64,000 bases of DNA from an uncultured Clostridia bacterium (lineage in GTDB: Bacteria > Bacillota > Clostridia > TANB77 > CAG-508). The DNA is taken from assembly GCA_944393325.1 (NCBI GenBank), contig CALXZU010000002.1:20179-84178 (forward strand), in the 5' to 3' direction. The notes under the pieces were generated by a model, which did no database searches, had not been told where the DNA came from, and was given only the letters and a program-made list of their open reading frames with translations. Positions 5,446 to 34,705 of the stretch are shown here, in pieces (position 1 is the stretch's first letter; each line of letters begins with the position of its first letter). The translations under genes and the position numbers were made by a program.

Positions 5446-5584
5446 GCAAAAGATTATTAATAATGCACTTTAAAATTTTTTTTATTTTAAAGTGCATTAT
5501 TTACATATTTGTGTTATAATATTTGTGTTAAAAAATTTATTTTAAAAAATATTAAATATTTTTATAAAAATTAGGAGAAAATAT

Positions 5585-6043
5585 ATGAATACAAAATTGA
5601 TTTCAAAAAATCCAACAGCATACCATAATTATACTATTGAAAATAAATTAGAAGCTGGAATCGTACTTTCAGGTACGGAAATAAAATCAATTAGAAGTGG
5701 AAAAGCAAATTTGAAAGATAGTTATGCAATAATAAAAAATGGAGAAGTTTTTGTTGTTGGTATGCATATTAGTCCATATGAACATGGGAATATTTTTAAT
5801 AAAGATCCATTGCGTAATAGAAAACTTTTACTAAATAAGAGAGAAATTAATAAATTAATTGGTTTAACAAAACAAAAAGGATATAGCTTGGTTCCTATTA
5901 GTTTATATTTCAAAGGTAGTTTGGTAAAATTAGAATTAGGCATTGGAAAAGGTAAAAAATTATATGATAAACGTGAAGATTTAGCAAAAAAAGATGCTTT
6001 AAGAAAAATAAATCAAGCAATGAAAGAAAAATACAGAGGATAA
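5585..6043 (+). CDS. smpB: SsrA-binding protein SmpB
   Basis: 152 aa, recognised SmpB sequence ([19 protein letters not shown]..., [12 protein letters not shown]). Confidence 0.95.
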
Positions 6044-6119
6044 TTTCCTTTGTATTTTTCTTTATTCTTATTTTTTATTTTTCAATTTTAATTGTTATTT
6101 TAATTTTTGTTATAATTTA

Positions 6120-7049
6120 TTATATTTTATTACTTGATCCAAAAACATCTATCATTTTATGCTTTACTGTTTCTTTAATTAATTCTCTTGCTTCACCTAA
6201 GTATTTTCTTGGATCAAATGCACTAGGGTCTTCTACAAATATTTTTCTTATTCCTGCTGTCATTGCTAATCTTAAGTCTGTATCAACATTTATTTTAGAA
6301 ACACCTGATATACTTGCTTCATGTAACATTTCATCTGGTACTCCTTTTGCTCCTGGAATATTTCCACCATATTTATTACACATATCAACAAATTCAGGAA
6401 TTACTGTTGATGCCCCATGTAATACTATTGGTGTATTTGGTATTCTTTCCTTTATTTCTTTTAAAATATCAAATCTAAGTTTTGCTTCTCCTTTAAATTT
6501 ATAAGCACCATGACTTGTGCCTATTGCAATTGCTAAAGAGTCACAACCTGTTCTTTTAACAAATTCTTCAGCTTGAGCTGGATCTGTATACATAGCATCT
6601 GACGCATCTACATTTACATCATCTTCTATTCCTGCTAATTTTCCAAGTTCTGCTTCTACTACAACACCATGTTCATGAGCATAATCAACAACTTGTTTTG
6701 TTAGTCTTACATTTTCCTCAAAATCATATTTAGAGCCATCTATCATAACAGATGTAAATCCGCTATCTATACACATTTTAGCTGTTTCAAAATCTGGTCC
6801 ATGGTCTAAATGAATAGCAATTGGAACTTCTGGGTGCTCTTCCACTGCTGCATCTATCATTTTCATTAAATATCCCATTCTCGCATATTTTATAGCACTT
6901 GAAGATGCTTGTAATATAACTGGAGATTTAGCCTCTGCTGCAGCATCTACAATTCCTTGTATTATTTCCATATCATTTACATTAAATGCTCCTACTGCAA
7001 AACCTTCTTTCATTGATTTTTCAAACATATCTTTTGTTGTAACTAACAT
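6120..7049 (-). CDS. fba: class II fructose-bisphosphate aldolase
   Basis: Recognised class II FBA motifs (IHLDHG, LHGASTV); locally higher GC typical of highly expressed genes. Confidence 0.95.
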   Translation of the reverse strand: MLVTTKDMFEKSMKEGFAVGAFNVNDMEIIQGIVDAAAEAKSPVILQASSSAIKYARMGYLMKMIDAAVEEHPEVPIAIHLDHGPDFETAKMCIDSGFTSVMIDGSKYDFEENVRLTKQVVDYAHEHGVVVEAELGKLAGIEDDVNVDASDAMYTDPAQAEEFVKRTGCDSLAIAIGTSHGAYKFKGEAKLRFDILKEIKERIPNTPIVLHGASTVIPEFVDMCNKYGGNIPGAKGVPDEMLHEASISGVSKINVDTDLRLAMTAGIRKIFVEDPSAFDPRKYLGEARELIKETVKHKMIDVFGSSNKI

Positions 7050-7108
7050 AATAATTCCTCCTATCTTTTTTCCTTTATATTCTACTTTGTTATTTTATTT
7101 CTTTATTT

Positions 7109-8116
7109 TTAATATGTCAAGTGCTTTTGAGACAAAAAGTCTCCATCATCAAAACTTTCTCCTAACTCTGTTGACAAATATTTTTTATTGTCATCTGCAA
7201 ATATGGTTATAATATCTTTTTCCAGTTTATAACCCAATTTAATTGCTCCTACTAAATTTGCTCCTGATGATATTCCAACTCCTATTCCTAATTCTCTCGC
7301 CAATTTTTTTGCCATATTTATTGCTTCTTCATCACTTACTAATATAATATCATCTATCTTTTCCTTGTCTAAAAGTTCAGGTATGAAATCATCTCCTATT
7401 CCTTCTATTTTATGTTGTTCATACTTAATATTTTCTTTATTACTATTCTTTTCTATTTTCCCTTTTGCTTCTGATATTATTGGCATTTTTTCTGGCTCAA
7501 TTGCAACTATTTTTATGTCTTTATATTTTTCTTTTAATCTATCTCCTATTCCCATTAGTGTTCCGCCTGTTCCTACTCCTGATACAAACCCTCCTATTGA
7601 TTTTCCATTTTCTAATTGTTCTATAATTTCTTTTCCAGTTGTTTCATAATGTGCATTATAATTATCTTTATTACTAAATTGATTTACTAAAAATGCTTTA
7701 TTTTTTCTTGCAAATTTTTTTGCTTCTTCCACACACCTTATAAATCCTCCTTCTTCTTTAGAAATTAGTTTTACATTTGCACCATAACATTTCATTAATT
7801 TTATTCTTTCTTTACTTACCCAATCTGGCATAAATATATATACTGGATTATTATAATATGCGCCTATTGCTGATAAAGAAATTCCTGTATTACCACTTGT
7901 TGCTTCTACGATAGGCATTTTTTCTTTTAAAACTCCTTCTCTTTTTGCTTTTTCTATTATATATAATGCTACTCTATCTTTTATACTTCCTGTTAAATTA
8001 TAATATTCTAATTTTACAAATACATTTATTTCTTTTTCTATTCCTTTTTCATCTTCTCCTTTGTATTTAAATTTGATTTTTATCATTGGCGTGTTTCCTA
8101 TTAAATCATCTAACAT
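7109..8116 (-). CDS. PLP-dependent cysteine synthase family protein (CysK/CysM-like)
   Basis: LTGSIKDR lysine motif, SGNTG, glycine-rich GVGTGGT loop. Confidence 0.8.
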   Translation of the reverse strand: MLDDLIGNTPMIKIKFKYKGEDEKGIEKEINVFVKLEYYNLTGSIKDRVALYIIEKAKREGVLKEKMPIVEATSGNTGISLSAIGAYYNNPVYIFMPDWVSKERIKLMKCYGANVKLISKEEGGFIRCVEEAKKFARKNKAFLVNQFSNKDNYNAHYETTGKEIIEQLENGKSIGGFVSGVGTGGTLMGIGDRLKEKYKDIKIVAIEPEKMPIISEAKGKIEKNSNKENIKYEQHKIEGIGDDFIPELLDKEKIDDIILVSDEEAINMAKKLARELGIGVGISSGANLVGAIKLGYKLEKDIITIFADDNKKYLSTELGESFDDGDFLSQKHLTY

Positions 8117-31615: not shown

Positions 31616-32269
31616 TTACATTTTTCTAAATACTCCAGCAACTTTTCCAAGTATTTCACAATTAGGCACAATAATTGGATCCATTGTACTATTTTCTGGT
31701 TGTAATCTAATATGATCTTTTTCTTTATAAAATGTTTTAACAGTTGCTTCGTCTCCTATTAATGCAACTACTATTTCTCCATTGTTTGCTGTATTTTGTC
31801 TTTTAACTAATATATAGTCTCCATCTAAAATTCCAGCTTCTATCATACTCTCTCCTCTTACTGTTAGCATAAAACTTTCTGAATTACCAACAAAATCTAT
31901 TGGAATTGGAAAAGTATCTGTTACATTTTCTACTGCTAAAATTGGTTCTCCCGCTGTTATTTTTCCTATTATTGGCACTTCTACCATTTCTTTTTGTAAA
32001 TAGAAGTTTTTACTTGATGTTTGTTTTTCTTCTCCTGCTCCACCTTTAAGCAATCTCATTGTTCTACCTTTTTTGTCTTGTCTTTTAATGTAACCTTTTT
32101 CTTCTAGTCTTTTTAAATATCCATGTACTGTTGCTGTTGAATTTAATCCTACTGCTTTTCCTATTTCTCTTACTGATGGTGGATATCCTTCAGTCATTAT
32201 TTGTCTTTCTACAAATTTTAATATTGATTTTTCTCTTCCGTTTAGTTCTTCTTTATTGTTTTTTTCCAT
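31616..32269 (-). CDS. lexA: LexA repressor
   Basis: N-terminal wHTH ([11 protein letters not shown]), Ala-Gly cleavage region, S24 peptidase motifs (VRGESM, ...VKTF). Confidence 0.95.
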
Positions 32270-32388
32270 TTAAATCACTCCCATTAAAAATCTACATCTA
32301 TAATATCATACAAACAAAAGAATGTCAAACATTTTTTCGAGATTTTTTTAGAAATTTCTTGAATAATTTTAAAAATCAGAAAAAAGCA

Positions 32389-32417
32389 TTGACTTTACAT
32401 AAACATCGTTATATAAT
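32389..32417 (+). promoter_or_regulatory. consensus sigma-A promoter TTGACT-17-TATAAT driving the Ubl/rSAM-JAB islet
   Basis: Perfect -35 and -10 with 17-bp spacer, ~130 nt upstream of ATG 32546. Confidence 0.55.
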
Positions 32418-32425
32418 GCATGTGA

Positions 32426-32443
32426 AACTTGCAAATGCAAGTT
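32426..32443. promoter_or_regulatory. operator-like palindrome AACTTGCA-AA-TGCAAGTT immediately downstream of the -10
   Basis: 8-bp perfect arms with 2-bp spacer; a further 7-bp hairpin (tattgct/agcaata) at ~32457-32475 in the leader. Confidence 0.45.
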
Positions 32444-32545
32444 AATGTAGAATAGAGATATTGCTTTTATAGCAATACTCACGATTTTCCTAAAAGGAGG
32501 GTAGTTTTTTAGTAAATTAACACTAACTATTAGAAGGGAACTATC

Positions 32546-33001
32546 ATGTCCAACAAAGAGTTCATCAATGTAAAAGTACATCTTCGAACTAACGTAGATT
32601 CTGTAAAAATCCCAACTGATATTGACGAAATTCAGCTCAAAGCTCTGCTCAGAGACTTGGGATACATTTCTTCTTATATGGAGGCTTACCTTACAACCAG
32701 TGTGTATATTCTTTCTGACGATGGTACTAGGAGGGAAAAAGAAATTTGTCTTCCTGAATATCGTTCAATTACTGAACTGGGGATTAAAGAAGGTTCTCGG
32801 CTTTATATTATTCCTGGTGTAGAACCACTTCCTAAGATTGAATACCGAACTGTTTACAAAAATTCTAGTGGTTTTGGCTATGGAGGAGGTCGCGTTCTAT
32901 ATGGCTGTCCAATGGCTCAGAGCGTTGCAGATGCTATTAACAATGCCGAAGTTTATTCAGATGAAGATAGCATAACTACAACTGGCTTCATTAATAGTTA
33001 A
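32546..33001 (+). CDS. small beta-grasp/ubiquitin-like protein with Gly-rich (GFGYGGG) segment and 35-aa Cys-containing C-terminal tail
   Basis: 151 aa. INVKVHL...ELGIKEGSRLYIIPG resembles the Ub fold pattern, then SGFGYGGG-RVLYGCPMAQ.... GC ~38-40% versus ~25% host. 18 nt upstream of the rSAM gene. Confidence 0.5.
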   Translation: MSNKEFINVKVHLRTNVDSVKIPTDIDEIQLKALLRDLGYISSYMEAYLTTSVYILSDDGTRREKEICLPEYRSITELGIKEGSRLYIIPGVEPLPKIEYRTVYKNSSGFGYGGGRVLYGCPMAQSVADAINNAEVYSDEDSITTTGFINS

Positions 33002-33019
33002 TAAGAAACAGAGGTTTAT

Positions 33020-34642
33020 ATGAACAAATATCCTTTACATACACTATTTTTTGAAGTTACTAGTAGGTGCAATGCTCTTTGTGACCATTGTGGTAGCAGG
33101 TGTACAGCCATCAAAAAAGATGAGCTTTCCGCTGATGTTTTCCAAAGAGTGCTTAGCGATGTAGCTAAGAATTTTGGAACAAAAACAATTATGCTCAACA
33201 TTACCGGAGGCGAACCTCTTATTAGACGAGATTTGTTTGACATTACTAGCTATGCAGATAAACTCGGCTTTAAGTGGGGGCTAGTAACTAATGGTATGCT
33301 AATAACAGATGATGTTATTAGTAAAATGCGAGAAACTCATATGTCTACAATTACCATTAGTCTTGATGGTATGAAAAAAACTCATGAAGAGTTTAGGCAT
33401 GTGCCTGGTTCGTTCGATAAAATTATTTTAGCTATTGAAAAGCTAAAAAAAGCTAATTTTGTTGAACATATTCAGGTTACGTTTATTGCAACCAAAAAGA
33501 ACATCTCTGAGCTACCAGAAGTTTATCGGTTACTGACTATGTTGGGAATTGATTCTCTTAGGATTAGCGGAATTGATCCTATTGGTAGAGCCAAAGATAA
33601 TGAGGAATTGATGTTAAGTCAAGAAGATTATTTGTTCCTTTTTGACTTTATGAAAAAACATCAAGAAGGTCCTCTACAAGTAGTATGGAGTTGTACTCAT
33701 TATTTTGGTAATACTGATATTACTCCAGATCCAACTGGTAAAAAGTTTACTTGCGAAACTGGTATACATATTGCTTCTGTTCTTTCGAATGGTGATATTT
33801 TTGGTTGTCCAAACATCCCAAGAAGGAAAGAACTAATACAAGGAAATGTTCTTGAAGACGATTTTTGCAAAATATGGAATACCGGATTCCAATTTTATAG
33901 AAATCCTGATAGAACAAAATCTGAGCAATGTGGCGGGTGTAAATATTGGAAATATTGCAAAGGCGATAGTTTCCATACCTTTGACTTTGAAAGAGGTGTC
34001 CCCCAGTTTTGCTACAAAGATCTTTTCAGTAGTACACCAATGCTATTAGCAGACAAGATTCAAGATGTATCATTTGATGATATTATTTCATTGTTATCCT
34101 CCAAGAATGGAGTAATGAAACATCTTACAATAAAACCTGCTAATAGGAAAGCATCCCGAACTGTACTATTTACACCACAAGCTACAAAAGATTTATTCTC
34201 TATTTTTCATTATGGAGAAAAACATCCTAGTAACTTGTACGAACAGCTAGTTGCTCTTATTGGAAATCGATTTTCGGACATTTCCTTAGTCAAATATATT
34301 ATCCCAGTAACGTTGTACAATCGTGCTGGCAATATGGCTGTTTTGAATGAATTCTGTATTAGTCAAATTATGGATGAAATTTCAATTATTAATGAAAATT
34401 CTTCCTCTTCTGACCCTATATATCAGGACTCATTCGGAAATGTTCAGTTTCTTGGCTTTGCACACAGTCATCCTGGAGAGACGGATTTTAGATTTAGCAC
34501 TAATGATACCAAAAACCATGAGGATTTTGTAGATAGATTTAGTGACTTTATATCTATTATCCTTAATCCACAAAAGCAGAAAATTGTGTGTTTTTCTGGA
34601 AAGGATTGTGTCCAAGCGAAGTTAATGTTGCTTTACAAGTAA
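33020..34642 (+). CDS. radical SAM / SPASM-domain enzyme fused to C-terminal JAB/MPN (JAMM) metalloprotease domain
   Basis: CNALCDHC (CxxxCxxC) near the N-terminus, SAM-binding GGEPL. SPASM cysteines C..GDIFGC ... CGGCKYWKYC. C-terminal FLGFAHSHPGETDFRFSTND = HxH-x8-S-x2-D JAMM motif preceded by a conserved Glu region. Confidence 0.75.
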   Translation: MNKYPLHTLFFEVTSRCNALCDHCGSRCTAIKKDELSADVFQRVLSDVAKNFGTKTIMLNITGGEPLIRRDLFDITSYADKLGFKWGLVTNGMLITDDVISKMRETHMSTITISLDGMKKTHEEFRHVPGSFDKIILAIEKLKKANFVEHIQVTFIATKKNISELPEVYRLLTMLGIDSLRISGIDPIGRAKDNEELMLSQEDYLFLFDFMKKHQEGPLQVVWSCTHYFGNTDITPDPTGKKFTCETGIHIASVLSNGDIFGCPNIPRRKELIQGNVLEDDFCKIWNTGFQFYRNPDRTKSEQCGGCKYWKYCKGDSFHTFDFERGVPQFCYKDLFSSTPMLLADKIQDVSFDDIISLLSSKNGVMKHLTIKPANRKASRTVLFTPQATKDLFSIFHYGEKHPSNLYEQLVALIGNRFSDISLVKYIIPVTLYNRAGNMAVLNEFCISQIMDEISIINENSSSSDPIYQDSFGNVQFLGFAHSHPGETDFRFSTNDTKNHEDFVDRFSDFISIILNPQKQKIVCFSGKDCVQAKLMLLYK

Positions 34643-34652
34643 CTACATAAAC

Positions 34653-34688
34653 AAATACAGAGGAGGTTTGTAAACTTCCTCTGTATTT
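34653..34688. terminator. bidirectional terminator between rSAM-JAB gene (+) and M23 gene (-)
   Basis: 12-bp perfect stem aaatacagagga/tcctctgtattt with 12-nt loop. Confidence 0.55.
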
Positions 34689-34705
34689 GTTACTGTACTA
34701 TTTGT

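Follow-up and report, generated by a model that had tools for sequence, protein, structure and literature searches.

The window analysed here is a 64,000-nucleotide stretch of contig CALXZU010000002.1 from an uncultured Clostridia bacterium, and the element under study is a pair of adjacent genes within it: gene 1, encoding a small protein with a predicted ubiquitin-like (Ubl) domain, and gene 2, encoding an enzyme in which a radical S-adenosylmethionine (radical-SAM) core, a SPASM domain and a JAB/MPN+ metalloprotease (JAMM) domain are joined in one polypeptide. Both open reading frames (ORFs) lie on the forward strand where a preliminary description of this DNA had placed them, and the motifs that it quoted are all present (INVKVHL...GSRLYIIPG, SGFGYGGG and RVLYGCPMAQ in gene 1; CxxxCxxC in gene 2). 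The features of the pair, in window coordinates, are as follows.

32546-33001, + strand: gene 1, 151 residues, partner protein and proposed substrate, always directly upstream of the radical-SAM-JAB gene
32558-32818, + strand: ubiquitin-like beta-grasp domain of gene 1, residues 5-91, from the predicted structure
32900-32911, + strand: Tyr119-Gly120-Cys121-Pro122 motif, proposed modification and cleavage site, invariant in 19/19 homologues
32912-32998, + strand: acidic follower of 29 residues after the motif, MAQSVADAINNAEVYSDEDSITTTGFINS, including a short predicted helix
33020-34642, + strand: gene 2, radical-SAM-SPASM-JAB fusion, 540 residues
33053-33535, + strand: radical-SAM core, residues 12-172 (Pfam PF04055, 3.4e-20)
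33068-33091, + strand: CxxxCxxC, residues 17-24 (C17-x3-C21-x2-C24), with C17, C21 and C24 invariant
33752-34012, + strand: SPASM auxiliary-cluster domain, residues 245-331 (Pfam PF13186)
34151-34639, + strand: JAB/MPN+ (JAMM) domain, residues 378-540, assigned from predicted fold, profile and invariant residues
34241-34243 and 34463-34507, + strand: JAMM residues Glu408 and H482-x-H484...S493..D496

The N-terminal part of gene 2 belongs to the Radical SAM superfamily (PF04055, 73.3 bits against a cut-off of 29.5) and carries a SPASM domain (PF13186, 23.9 bits against a cut-off of 21.5, E = 5e-5), so that Pfam bears out both the canonical CxxxCxxC and the SPASM motif previously noticed by eye. 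We took as SPASM the extension CX9-15GX4C...CX2CX5CX3C...C, which binds two auxiliary clusters; its invariant cysteines in gene 2 are C225, C245, C263, C304, C307, C313 and C331. The fourth cysteine of the CX2CX5CX3C segment (residues 304-317, 33929-33970) is replaced by Ser317, after an invariant Asp316, in 31 of 31 homologues, and this change may supply a non-cysteine ligand to an auxiliary cluster. The best NCBIfam model is TIGR04133 ('rSAM_w_lipo'), which scores 273.5 bits over residues 2-332, below its cut-off of 425, and is followed by AhbD, WgkB (third, 134.5 bits), NirJ and the mycofactocin maturase (128 bits); the nearest solved structures of this part are CteB, BlsE, SkfB, PqqE and SuiB. 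The possibility that gene 2 is simply a SCIFF-type maturase with an unrelated neighbour, raised in the preliminary description, found no match: the SCIFF maturase model is absent from the 25 best NCBIfam matches of gene 2, and gene 1 has two cysteines in 151 residues, as against six in the 45-residue SCIFF precursor. A defence function was likewise rejected, the PADLOC matches of gene 2 reflecting generic viperin/radical-SAM similarity. A recognition element of the kind used by peptides that ribosomes synthesize and that are modified after translation (RiPPs), the RiPP recognition element (RRE), was found neither in the enzyme nor as a separate gene: Pfam returned no PqqD/RRE match in gene 2, ten orthologous loci contain no conserved third gene, and an N-terminal RRE is absent because the radical-SAM motif begins at residue 17.

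The C-terminal part of gene 2 had been proposed to be a JAB/MPN+ metalloprotease, and structure, profile and conservation agree with this. Residues 478-497 read FLGFAHSHPGETDFRFSTND, a JAMM HxH...S..D signature, and E408, H482, H484, S493 and D496 are invariant across 31 full-length homologues with identities down to 43%. Across all 38 fused enzymes of the genome scan described below, HxH-x8-S-x2-D is intact at identities down to ~34%; the spacer between HxH and Ser is thus 8 residues, compared with 7 in the JAMM consensus E...HxHx7Sx2D. The AlphaFold model of the domain has a predicted local distance difference test score (pLDDT) of 92.2, and its top 50 Foldseek matches in the PDB are all JAMM/MPN proteins (best E = 6.3e-9), among them an Rpn11 homologue, BRCC36, CSN5 and PfJAMM1, with JAMM-Ub/SAMP complexes at the top. 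Searched against PDB sequences, the family profile hits JAMM/MPN proteins only, with AMSH-LP best (1.6e-4), followed by Sst2, STAMBP, an Rpn11-like protein, BRCC36 and CSN6; on its own, the gene 2 sequence gives E = 0.024 with the PADLOC JAB model and stays below the Pfam Prok-JAB cut-off. That a radical-SAM-JAB fusion had not been described also appears to hold, since the full-text literature searched contains nothing on such fusions or on partners carrying YGCP or YGPP, although an earlier bioinformatic mention is possible.

For gene 1, residues 5-90 are modelled at pLDDT 82-89 with the topology beta-beta-alpha-beta-beta-beta, a beta-grasp fold, as had been suspected from the sequence of its N-terminus, and residues 98-151 are predicted to be disordered except for a short helix. 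No family in Pfam, NCBIfam or PADLOC matches gene 1, or the small YGCP ORFs found beside related enzymes (below). Word searches returned 18 homologues, and HMMER found 45 representative clusters among 1.84 billion proteins. In the family alignment the follower is the most conserved part of the protein, and the invariant tail reads L-Y-G-C-P-(M)-A-Q-S-V..A...A-E.Y-S..D-S. The earlier proposal that the JAB domain cleaves after the GGG of gene 1 is not upheld by this alignment: among the 19 homologues GGG is confined to the query and a relative 97% identical to it, with a partial occurrence in one further sequence, and the alignment contains no conserved GG, terminal or otherwise. Tail-less paralogues of the Ubl domain were also observed (L006 8834-9172; P0149, P0155, P0164, P0169 and P0178), one of them 1.2 kb downstream of a complete pair, and P0169 ends exactly at ...IIPG, where the beta-grasp domain ends; the Ubl domain therefore also exists alone.

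We scanned genomes with the gene 2 alignment, which yielded 38 full-length radical-SAM-SPASM-JAB loci and 42 loci with the radical-SAM-SPASM part only. The fused loci come nearly all from uncultured gut or rumen Clostridia, Lachnospiraceae, Ruminococcaceae and Oscillospiraceae, and the radical-SAM-only loci are spread over many phyla. The ten closest fused loci (L001-L010) have gene 1 and gene 2 as their sole conserved genes, with flanks that all differ, indicating that the pair is a self-contained module. Among fused loci at greater distance, a search with the profile of gene 1 gives practically no matches. Every one of the 38 fused loci has one to five adjacent small ORFs on the same strand that contain YG[CA]P (52 ORFs in total), the motif lying 13-34 residues from the partner's C-terminus in an unstructured region. 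Counted over the flanking six-frame translations, the motif occurs 51 times, where its frequency in the remainder of these loci predicts 0.63, an 81-fold enrichment with P ~2e-77.

Outside the motif, several unrelated classes of partner can be told apart. The Ubl domain is present in the window and in L001-L010; a lipoprotein signal peptide with a canonical lipobox in L011, L013, L016, L019, L022, L025 and L047; an amphipathic helix, with up to five copies in tandem, in L018, L023, L060 and others; a zinc ribbon with another domain in L029-L034; and a transmembrane helix in L017. One protein, P0181, joins a helical, non-Ubl domain to a gene 1-type tail beside a 64%-identical enzyme. We had considered that the zinc-ribbon partners might share the Ubl domain, but dropped this idea, as the YGCP region is all that HHalign aligns between the two classes. 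What follows the motif differs from class to class (an acidic helix in the Ubl class; the basic sequence NSKKxxKLxLxKK in partners of the lipoprotein and amphipathic types), and no co-variation was found between follower charge and the net charge of the enzyme domains. The residue before Tyr-Gly is one of [YLH] in all partners (Leu in gene 1), cysteine is frequent at position -2 of the motif, and the position of Cys121 is Ala in 2 of the 52. Thus, the enzyme family travels with this motif rather than with the ubiquitin fold. The search for Ubl neighbours proposed earlier is borne out for the closest loci, most other fused-enzyme partners having no Ubl domain, and the suggestion that the Ubl domain serves as the leader is not general, since partner N-termini elsewhere are lipoprotein signals, amphipathic helices, zinc ribbons or a helical domain. 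What is general, in 38 of 38 loci, is an encoded putative precursor with conserved site residues beside its presumed modifying enzyme, one of the features by which RiPP systems are recognized.

These co-occurrence data effectively refute the idea that the two genes are neighbours by chance, or that gene 1 is a spurious ORF. Its lack of any Pfam, NCBIfam or PADLOC family would fit such an idea, which we nonetheless find hardly credible given the homologues and clusters counted above with their strong purifying conservation, the constant position of gene 1 directly upstream of the enzyme, its confidently predicted beta-grasp domain and the motif enrichment.

The same data bear on whether gene 1 is a ubiquitin-like modifier or a sulfur carrier, the JAB domain exposing a C-terminal glycine for conjugation or thiocarboxylation and the radical-SAM domain using or modifying the carrier. 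The predicted fold of gene 1 is the right one, the pairing of JAB with Ubl proteins is classical, and a cut between YG and C would leave a C-terminal glycine. However, the ten orthologous loci, in which the pair alone is conserved, share no E1/ThiF/MoeB, E2 or sulfurtransferase gene beside it, nor does one lie beside it in the window; the terminal Gly-Gly and E1-like enzyme that go with ThiS, MoaD, CysO and the Bil Ubl are both missing; and most partners of the enzyme family carry no Ubl domain at all. We therefore regard a modifier pathway, one of two readings offered in the preliminary description, as very unlikely. The cassette does share with known JAMM-Ubl pairs (QbsD/QbsE, Mec+/CysO, PfJAMM1/SAMP2, CBASS Cap3 and Bil) an intact JAMM beside a beta-grasp protein with a C-terminal extension, but differs from them in lacking E1/E2, a sulfur-transfer partner and the GG, in the fusion of the JAMM to a radical-SAM enzyme, in the dispensability of the Ubl across the enzyme family, and in its HxH-to-Ser spacer of 8 rather than 7.

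The relatives without a JAB domain, the radical-SAM-only enzymes, adjoin signal-peptide, lipoprotein or membrane-anchored proteins with YGPP or YG[AVSC]P, often repeated, the position of the motif cysteine being taken by Pro, Ala, Ser or Val. A same-strand YGxP ORF lies within ~0.9 kb in 28 of the 42 loci, and YGxP occurs 61 times near these enzymes against 9.2 expected (P ~1e-29); no separate JAB gene was found near them. Bacteroidales enzymes of this set score 551-560 bits on TIGR04133, above its cut-off of 425, and the partners in Bacteroidales and Alkaliphilus are members of TIGR04134, 'radical SAM-associated putative lipoprotein' (97, 93 and 52 bits; cut-off 39.8). Gene 2 does not reach the TIGR04133 cut-off, and neither gene 1 nor the small YGCP ORFs match TIGR04134. 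The two models, both hypothetical equivalogs, describe an 'rSAM/lipoprotein' system whose enzyme is the best family match of the radical-SAM-SPASM part of gene 2, at 35-46% identity, with YGxP partners and the same two-gene layout. It differs in that the extra ~200-residue JAMM domain of gene 2 never occurs in or beside TIGR04133 enzymes, and in that the TIGR04134 motif stands just after the lipobox and before a folded domain, whereas gene 1 has the Ubl domain, a single motif and then the follower. From the shared family match and the YGxP partners we conclude that the cassette is a JAB-fused sister branch of the TIGR04133/TIGR04134 system, and at the level of sequence Y-G-x-P is the partner signature across the whole radical-SAM clade. 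The full-text literature searched holds no functional work on TIGR04133/TIGR04134. One variation was seen at L039 (7401-8147), where a 248-residue protein downstream of a radical-SAM-only relative repeats V-I-Y-A-P-P-T-P instead of YGPP; the motif glycine may thus be replaceable by alanine in some lineages.

The existence of JAB-less relatives paired with YGxP proteins and with no dedicated protease nearby raises the question of whether the JAB domain cuts the partner at all. It could instead be a docking module that replaces the RRE, which gene 2 lacks, or a hydrolase of a radical intermediate or adduct, the product being the full-length modified protein; JAB domains do bind beta-grasp proteins, and the complexes at the top of the Foldseek list are of this kind. 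We think this unlikely. The zinc and catalytic residues are invariant in 38 enzymes, which pure docking would not need, and the JAB fusion correlates with a single motif and a short C-terminal follower, as would fit a removable recognition peptide.

The arrangement also resembles several characterized maturation systems without coinciding with any. In mycofactocin (MftA/B/C/E) and PQQ (PqqA/D/E/F) biosynthesis a radical-SAM-SPASM enzyme modifies a peptide tyrosine and a metallopeptidase cuts afterwards, but the present cassette has no RRE chaperone or tailoring genes, its partners are protein-sized, multi-copy or exported, and its peptidase is of another fold and fused to the enzyme. Taken further, the likeness would suggest that the radical-SAM domain crosslinks or decarboxylates the tyrosine of (C)-x-Y-G-C-P and that the JAMM and housekeeping peptidases then release a small Tyr-Gly-derived molecule, with carrier and follower discarded. 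It would account for the universal part being a four-residue motif with class-specific flanks on both sides, it agrees with the mycofactocin maturase model among the top NCBIfam matches (128 bits) and with PqqE among the solved relatives, and it follows the logic of PqqE/PqqF and MftC/MftE, in which a radical-SAM-SPASM enzyme and a metallopeptidase act on a tyrosine-containing peptide. No tailoring enzyme or cofactor-dependent dehydrogenase is conserved nearby, however; tandem partners with lipoprotein signals or membrane anchors point to an exported, protein-attached modification, and JAB-less relatives show many YGPP repeats inside larger secreted proteins. A released small molecule is therefore, in our judgement, quite improbable.

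WgkB/tryglysin and the triceptide synthases share the aromatic-Gly-X logic (W-G-K compared with Y-G-C/P) and the repeated motifs in precursors, but the match of gene 2 to WgkB covers the radical-SAM core only, at 134.5 bits against a cut-off of 650. The WgkB and triceptide systems act on short leader-core peptides and use separate proteases or exporters. The spliceases PlpX and RhaX are radical-SAM enzymes that excise tyramine at X-Tyr-Gly, do not require a leader and accept whole proteins, and two-component spliceases without an RRE exist (PMC11414181). Gene 1 contains such an X-Tyr-Gly site, Leu-Tyr-Gly. Spliceases differ in needing no protease, and XYG sites, as far as we found, have neither the extra conserved proline at +3 nor the frequent cysteine at -2 and +2 of our partners. 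Bufferins, finally, are MNIO-modified RiPP precursors with Sec or lipoprotein signal peptides that are modified in the cytoplasm and then exported (PMC12452194), and the lipoprotein-class partners of the fused enzymes resemble bufferin precursors; the differences are that MNIO is not a radical-SAM enzyme, that bufferins carry Cys motifs and that gene 1 has no signal peptide.

Taken together, these results make it reasonably probable that the two genes constitute a self-contained RiPP-like maturation cassette, and we are considerably more confident that gene 1 is the substrate of gene 2 than of this general model. Comparative genomics thereby favours the RiPP-like alternative of the preliminary description. 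In such a cassette the radical-SAM domain, which together with SPASM is of the peptide-modifying type, would modify the Tyr-Gly site via a 5'-deoxyadenosyl radical. By analogy only, candidate chemistries are a crosslink of the tyrosine to the +2 residue, as in the WGK/triceptide cyclophanes, or a splicease-like excision at X-Tyr-Gly; a cysteine thioether is unlikely as the defining modification, because two of the 52 partners have Ala in place of the cysteine, and the JAB-less relatives have Pro, Ala, Ser or Val there. The fused JAMM would cut the partner next to the motif, after or before modification, most plausibly at the Gly120-Cys121 bond. We favour this bond because JAMM enzymes cleave after glycine, with precedents at Gly-Cys in QbsD (between GG and CF of QbsE) and Mec+ (the Gly-Cys adduct of CysO). 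We favour removal of the C-terminal follower because a cut on the N-terminal side would, in the lipoprotein class, strip the signal peptide before export. Such a cut would separate an N-terminal carrier, ending in gene 1 in ...Leu-Tyr-Gly with the tyrosine modified, from a class-specific follower that may act as the enzyme's recognition element, and the product would be a carrier ending in ...X-Tyr-Gly modified in the same way. The Ubl domain would then be one among several interchangeable carriers, perhaps recruited since JAB domains naturally bind beta-grasp folds.

Several observations weigh against the RiPP-like cassette. The radical-SAM domain is not specifically close to any characterized maturase, its best match TIGR04133 being itself uncharacterized, and AhbD and NirJ rank above peptide maturases among the NCBIfam models. 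No RRE domain is detectable in gene 2, and the single-sequence score on Prok-JAB PF14464 is 14.6 bits against a cut-off of 25 (E = 0.03). Cys121 is variable, as given above, and the JAMM could also cut on the N-terminal side of the motif or leave the partner uncut. Moreover, the cassette contains no exporter or immunity gene, which would be unusual for an antimicrobial RiPP.

A promoter, a palindrome and a second hairpin had been noted upstream of gene 1, and all three were recovered, together with a fourth element, the leader box. The control features are:

32389-32417, + strand: sigma-70-type promoter TTGACT-17-TATAAT, matching at 11/12 positions, with the -35 and -10 kept upstream of the pairs in L003-L008
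32426-32443, + strand: palindrome AACTTGCA-AA-TGCAAGTT (that is, AACTTGCAAATGCAAGTT), directly after the -10 box
32455-32480, + strand: second leader hairpin, GAG...CTC stem
32493-32515, + strand: conserved leader box AAGGAGGGTAGTTTTTTAGTAA, 23 nt, with a Shine-Dalgarno-like core and no start codon after it
34644-34697, no strand: bidirectional terminator separating gene 2 from the convergent M23 gene, a 26-nt inverted repeat with arms 88% complementary and a 2-nt loop

Promoter-like sites as such are no commoner in the region than in shuffled sequence (11 against 11.5); the cassette promoter is credible because it is conserved upstream of orthologous pairs whose flanks are unrelated. The palindrome recurs as AAATTTGCA-n3-4-TGCAAATTT in L003-L008, with one compensatory change (GTG/CAC) in L007. 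It lies where the transcript is predicted to begin and is equally likely to be an operator or a 5'-terminal RNA stem-loop. Tight repressor control, as suggested in the preliminary description, is one possible function. The minimum-free-energy fold of the leader has z = -3.0, its consensus structure shows some two-sided changes, and Rfam returned only chance-level matches on the 5' leader (all E > 0.4), with no known riboswitch or leader among them. In L001 and L003-L007 the leader box is found solely upstream of the gene 1 orthologue; its consensus is AAGGAGGGTAGTTTTT(T)AGTAAC, ~30-45 nt 5' of the gene 1 start (L001 5477-5500, L003 5472-5494, L004 5473-5495, L005 5476-5498, L006 5466-5489, L007 5473-5495). 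In the fold of the window's own sequence it pairs with the true Shine-Dalgarno region; a sequestering helix is not claimed, as the alignment consensus fails to recover it. The box is possibly a cis-regulatory element, not described before, that belongs to this cassette alone. Promoter, both hairpins and leader box are kept despite unrelated flanks, from which we conclude that the control region moves together with the cassette.

In the window the cassette is flanked by lexA (31616-32269, - strand) and, on the other side, by a convergent M23 peptidase/SpoIID/sigma-factor block, the Pfam labels of the neighbours being taken from metagenome copies identical to the window locus. A sporulation or SOS role guessed from these neighbours was rejected, as the flanks differ across L001-L010. 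The compositional anomaly reported earlier is real, the islet having the highest GC content of 620 equal-size sliding windows, although its size had been overstated: the islet is at 35.2% GC (gene 1 37.9%, gene 2 34.4%) and the window at 27.9%, rather than 38-40% and 25%. The GC content at third codon positions is 0.26-0.27 in the cassette, compared with 0.10-0.14 in five neighbouring genes. Despite this anomaly, acquisition was not very recent, because a relative with a 71%-identical gene 1 has the same arrangement of lexA, pair and M23 gene. No convincing direct repeats or insertion scars flank the islet. The lexA promoter, which is divergent (TTGACA-17-TATTAT, preceded by a TG; 32300-32328, - strand), and that of the cassette are 60 nt apart, with an AT-rich palindrome between them (32334-32375); no clear LexA box was recognized.

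Further observations concern individual loci. A large serine-recombinase-like gene lies a few kb from the pair in L010 (7893-9680), L003 (10404-12038) and L005 (10848-12485); these neighbours in 3 of the 10 closest loci hint that the cassette is sometimes carried on mobile elements. L017 (DALTWG010000001.1, in a bin labelled as a metagenome-assembled genome of Methanocorpusculum, a methanogenic archaeon) has at 5486-7635 a fused radical-SAM-JAB gene and two YGCP partners, one with a transmembrane helix, reflecting either bin contamination or inter-domain transfer. In L083 (3475-4110), an otherwise identical metagenome copy, gene 2 is called at only 211 residues with the remainder uncalled, which is either a natural frameshift or nonsense allele or an assembly error.

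It is tempting to speculate further that the whole TIGR04133-related clade installs an undescribed modification at YGxP, that the fused JAMM is a built-in follower or leader peptidase acting at Gly-Cys, and that the Ubl domain is a handle for the JAB domain and not a modifier, a proposal that we put forward tentatively and hold to be possible rather than probable. If true, this would be, as far as we found, the first JAMM used as a built-in RiPP follower or leader peptidase. Radical-SAM-SPASM maturation systems are known; what is new here is the fused JAMM protease, the swappable carriers, including a ubiquitin fold, and the clade-wide YGxP site. A concrete substrate site, Tyr-Gly-x-Pro, can now be offered for a widespread uncharacterized radical-SAM family that ranges over gut and rumen Firmicutes, Bacteroidales, candidate phyla radiation bacteria and others. 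The ubiquitin fold is here separated from ubiquitin-like function and appears as one of several interchangeable carriers for a short modified tail. If its chemistry proves to be novel or to resemble that of spliceases, this pair of genes would give a compact means of modifying proteins site-specifically, and the family would be a possible new source of modified peptides and lipoproteins from the gut microbiome.

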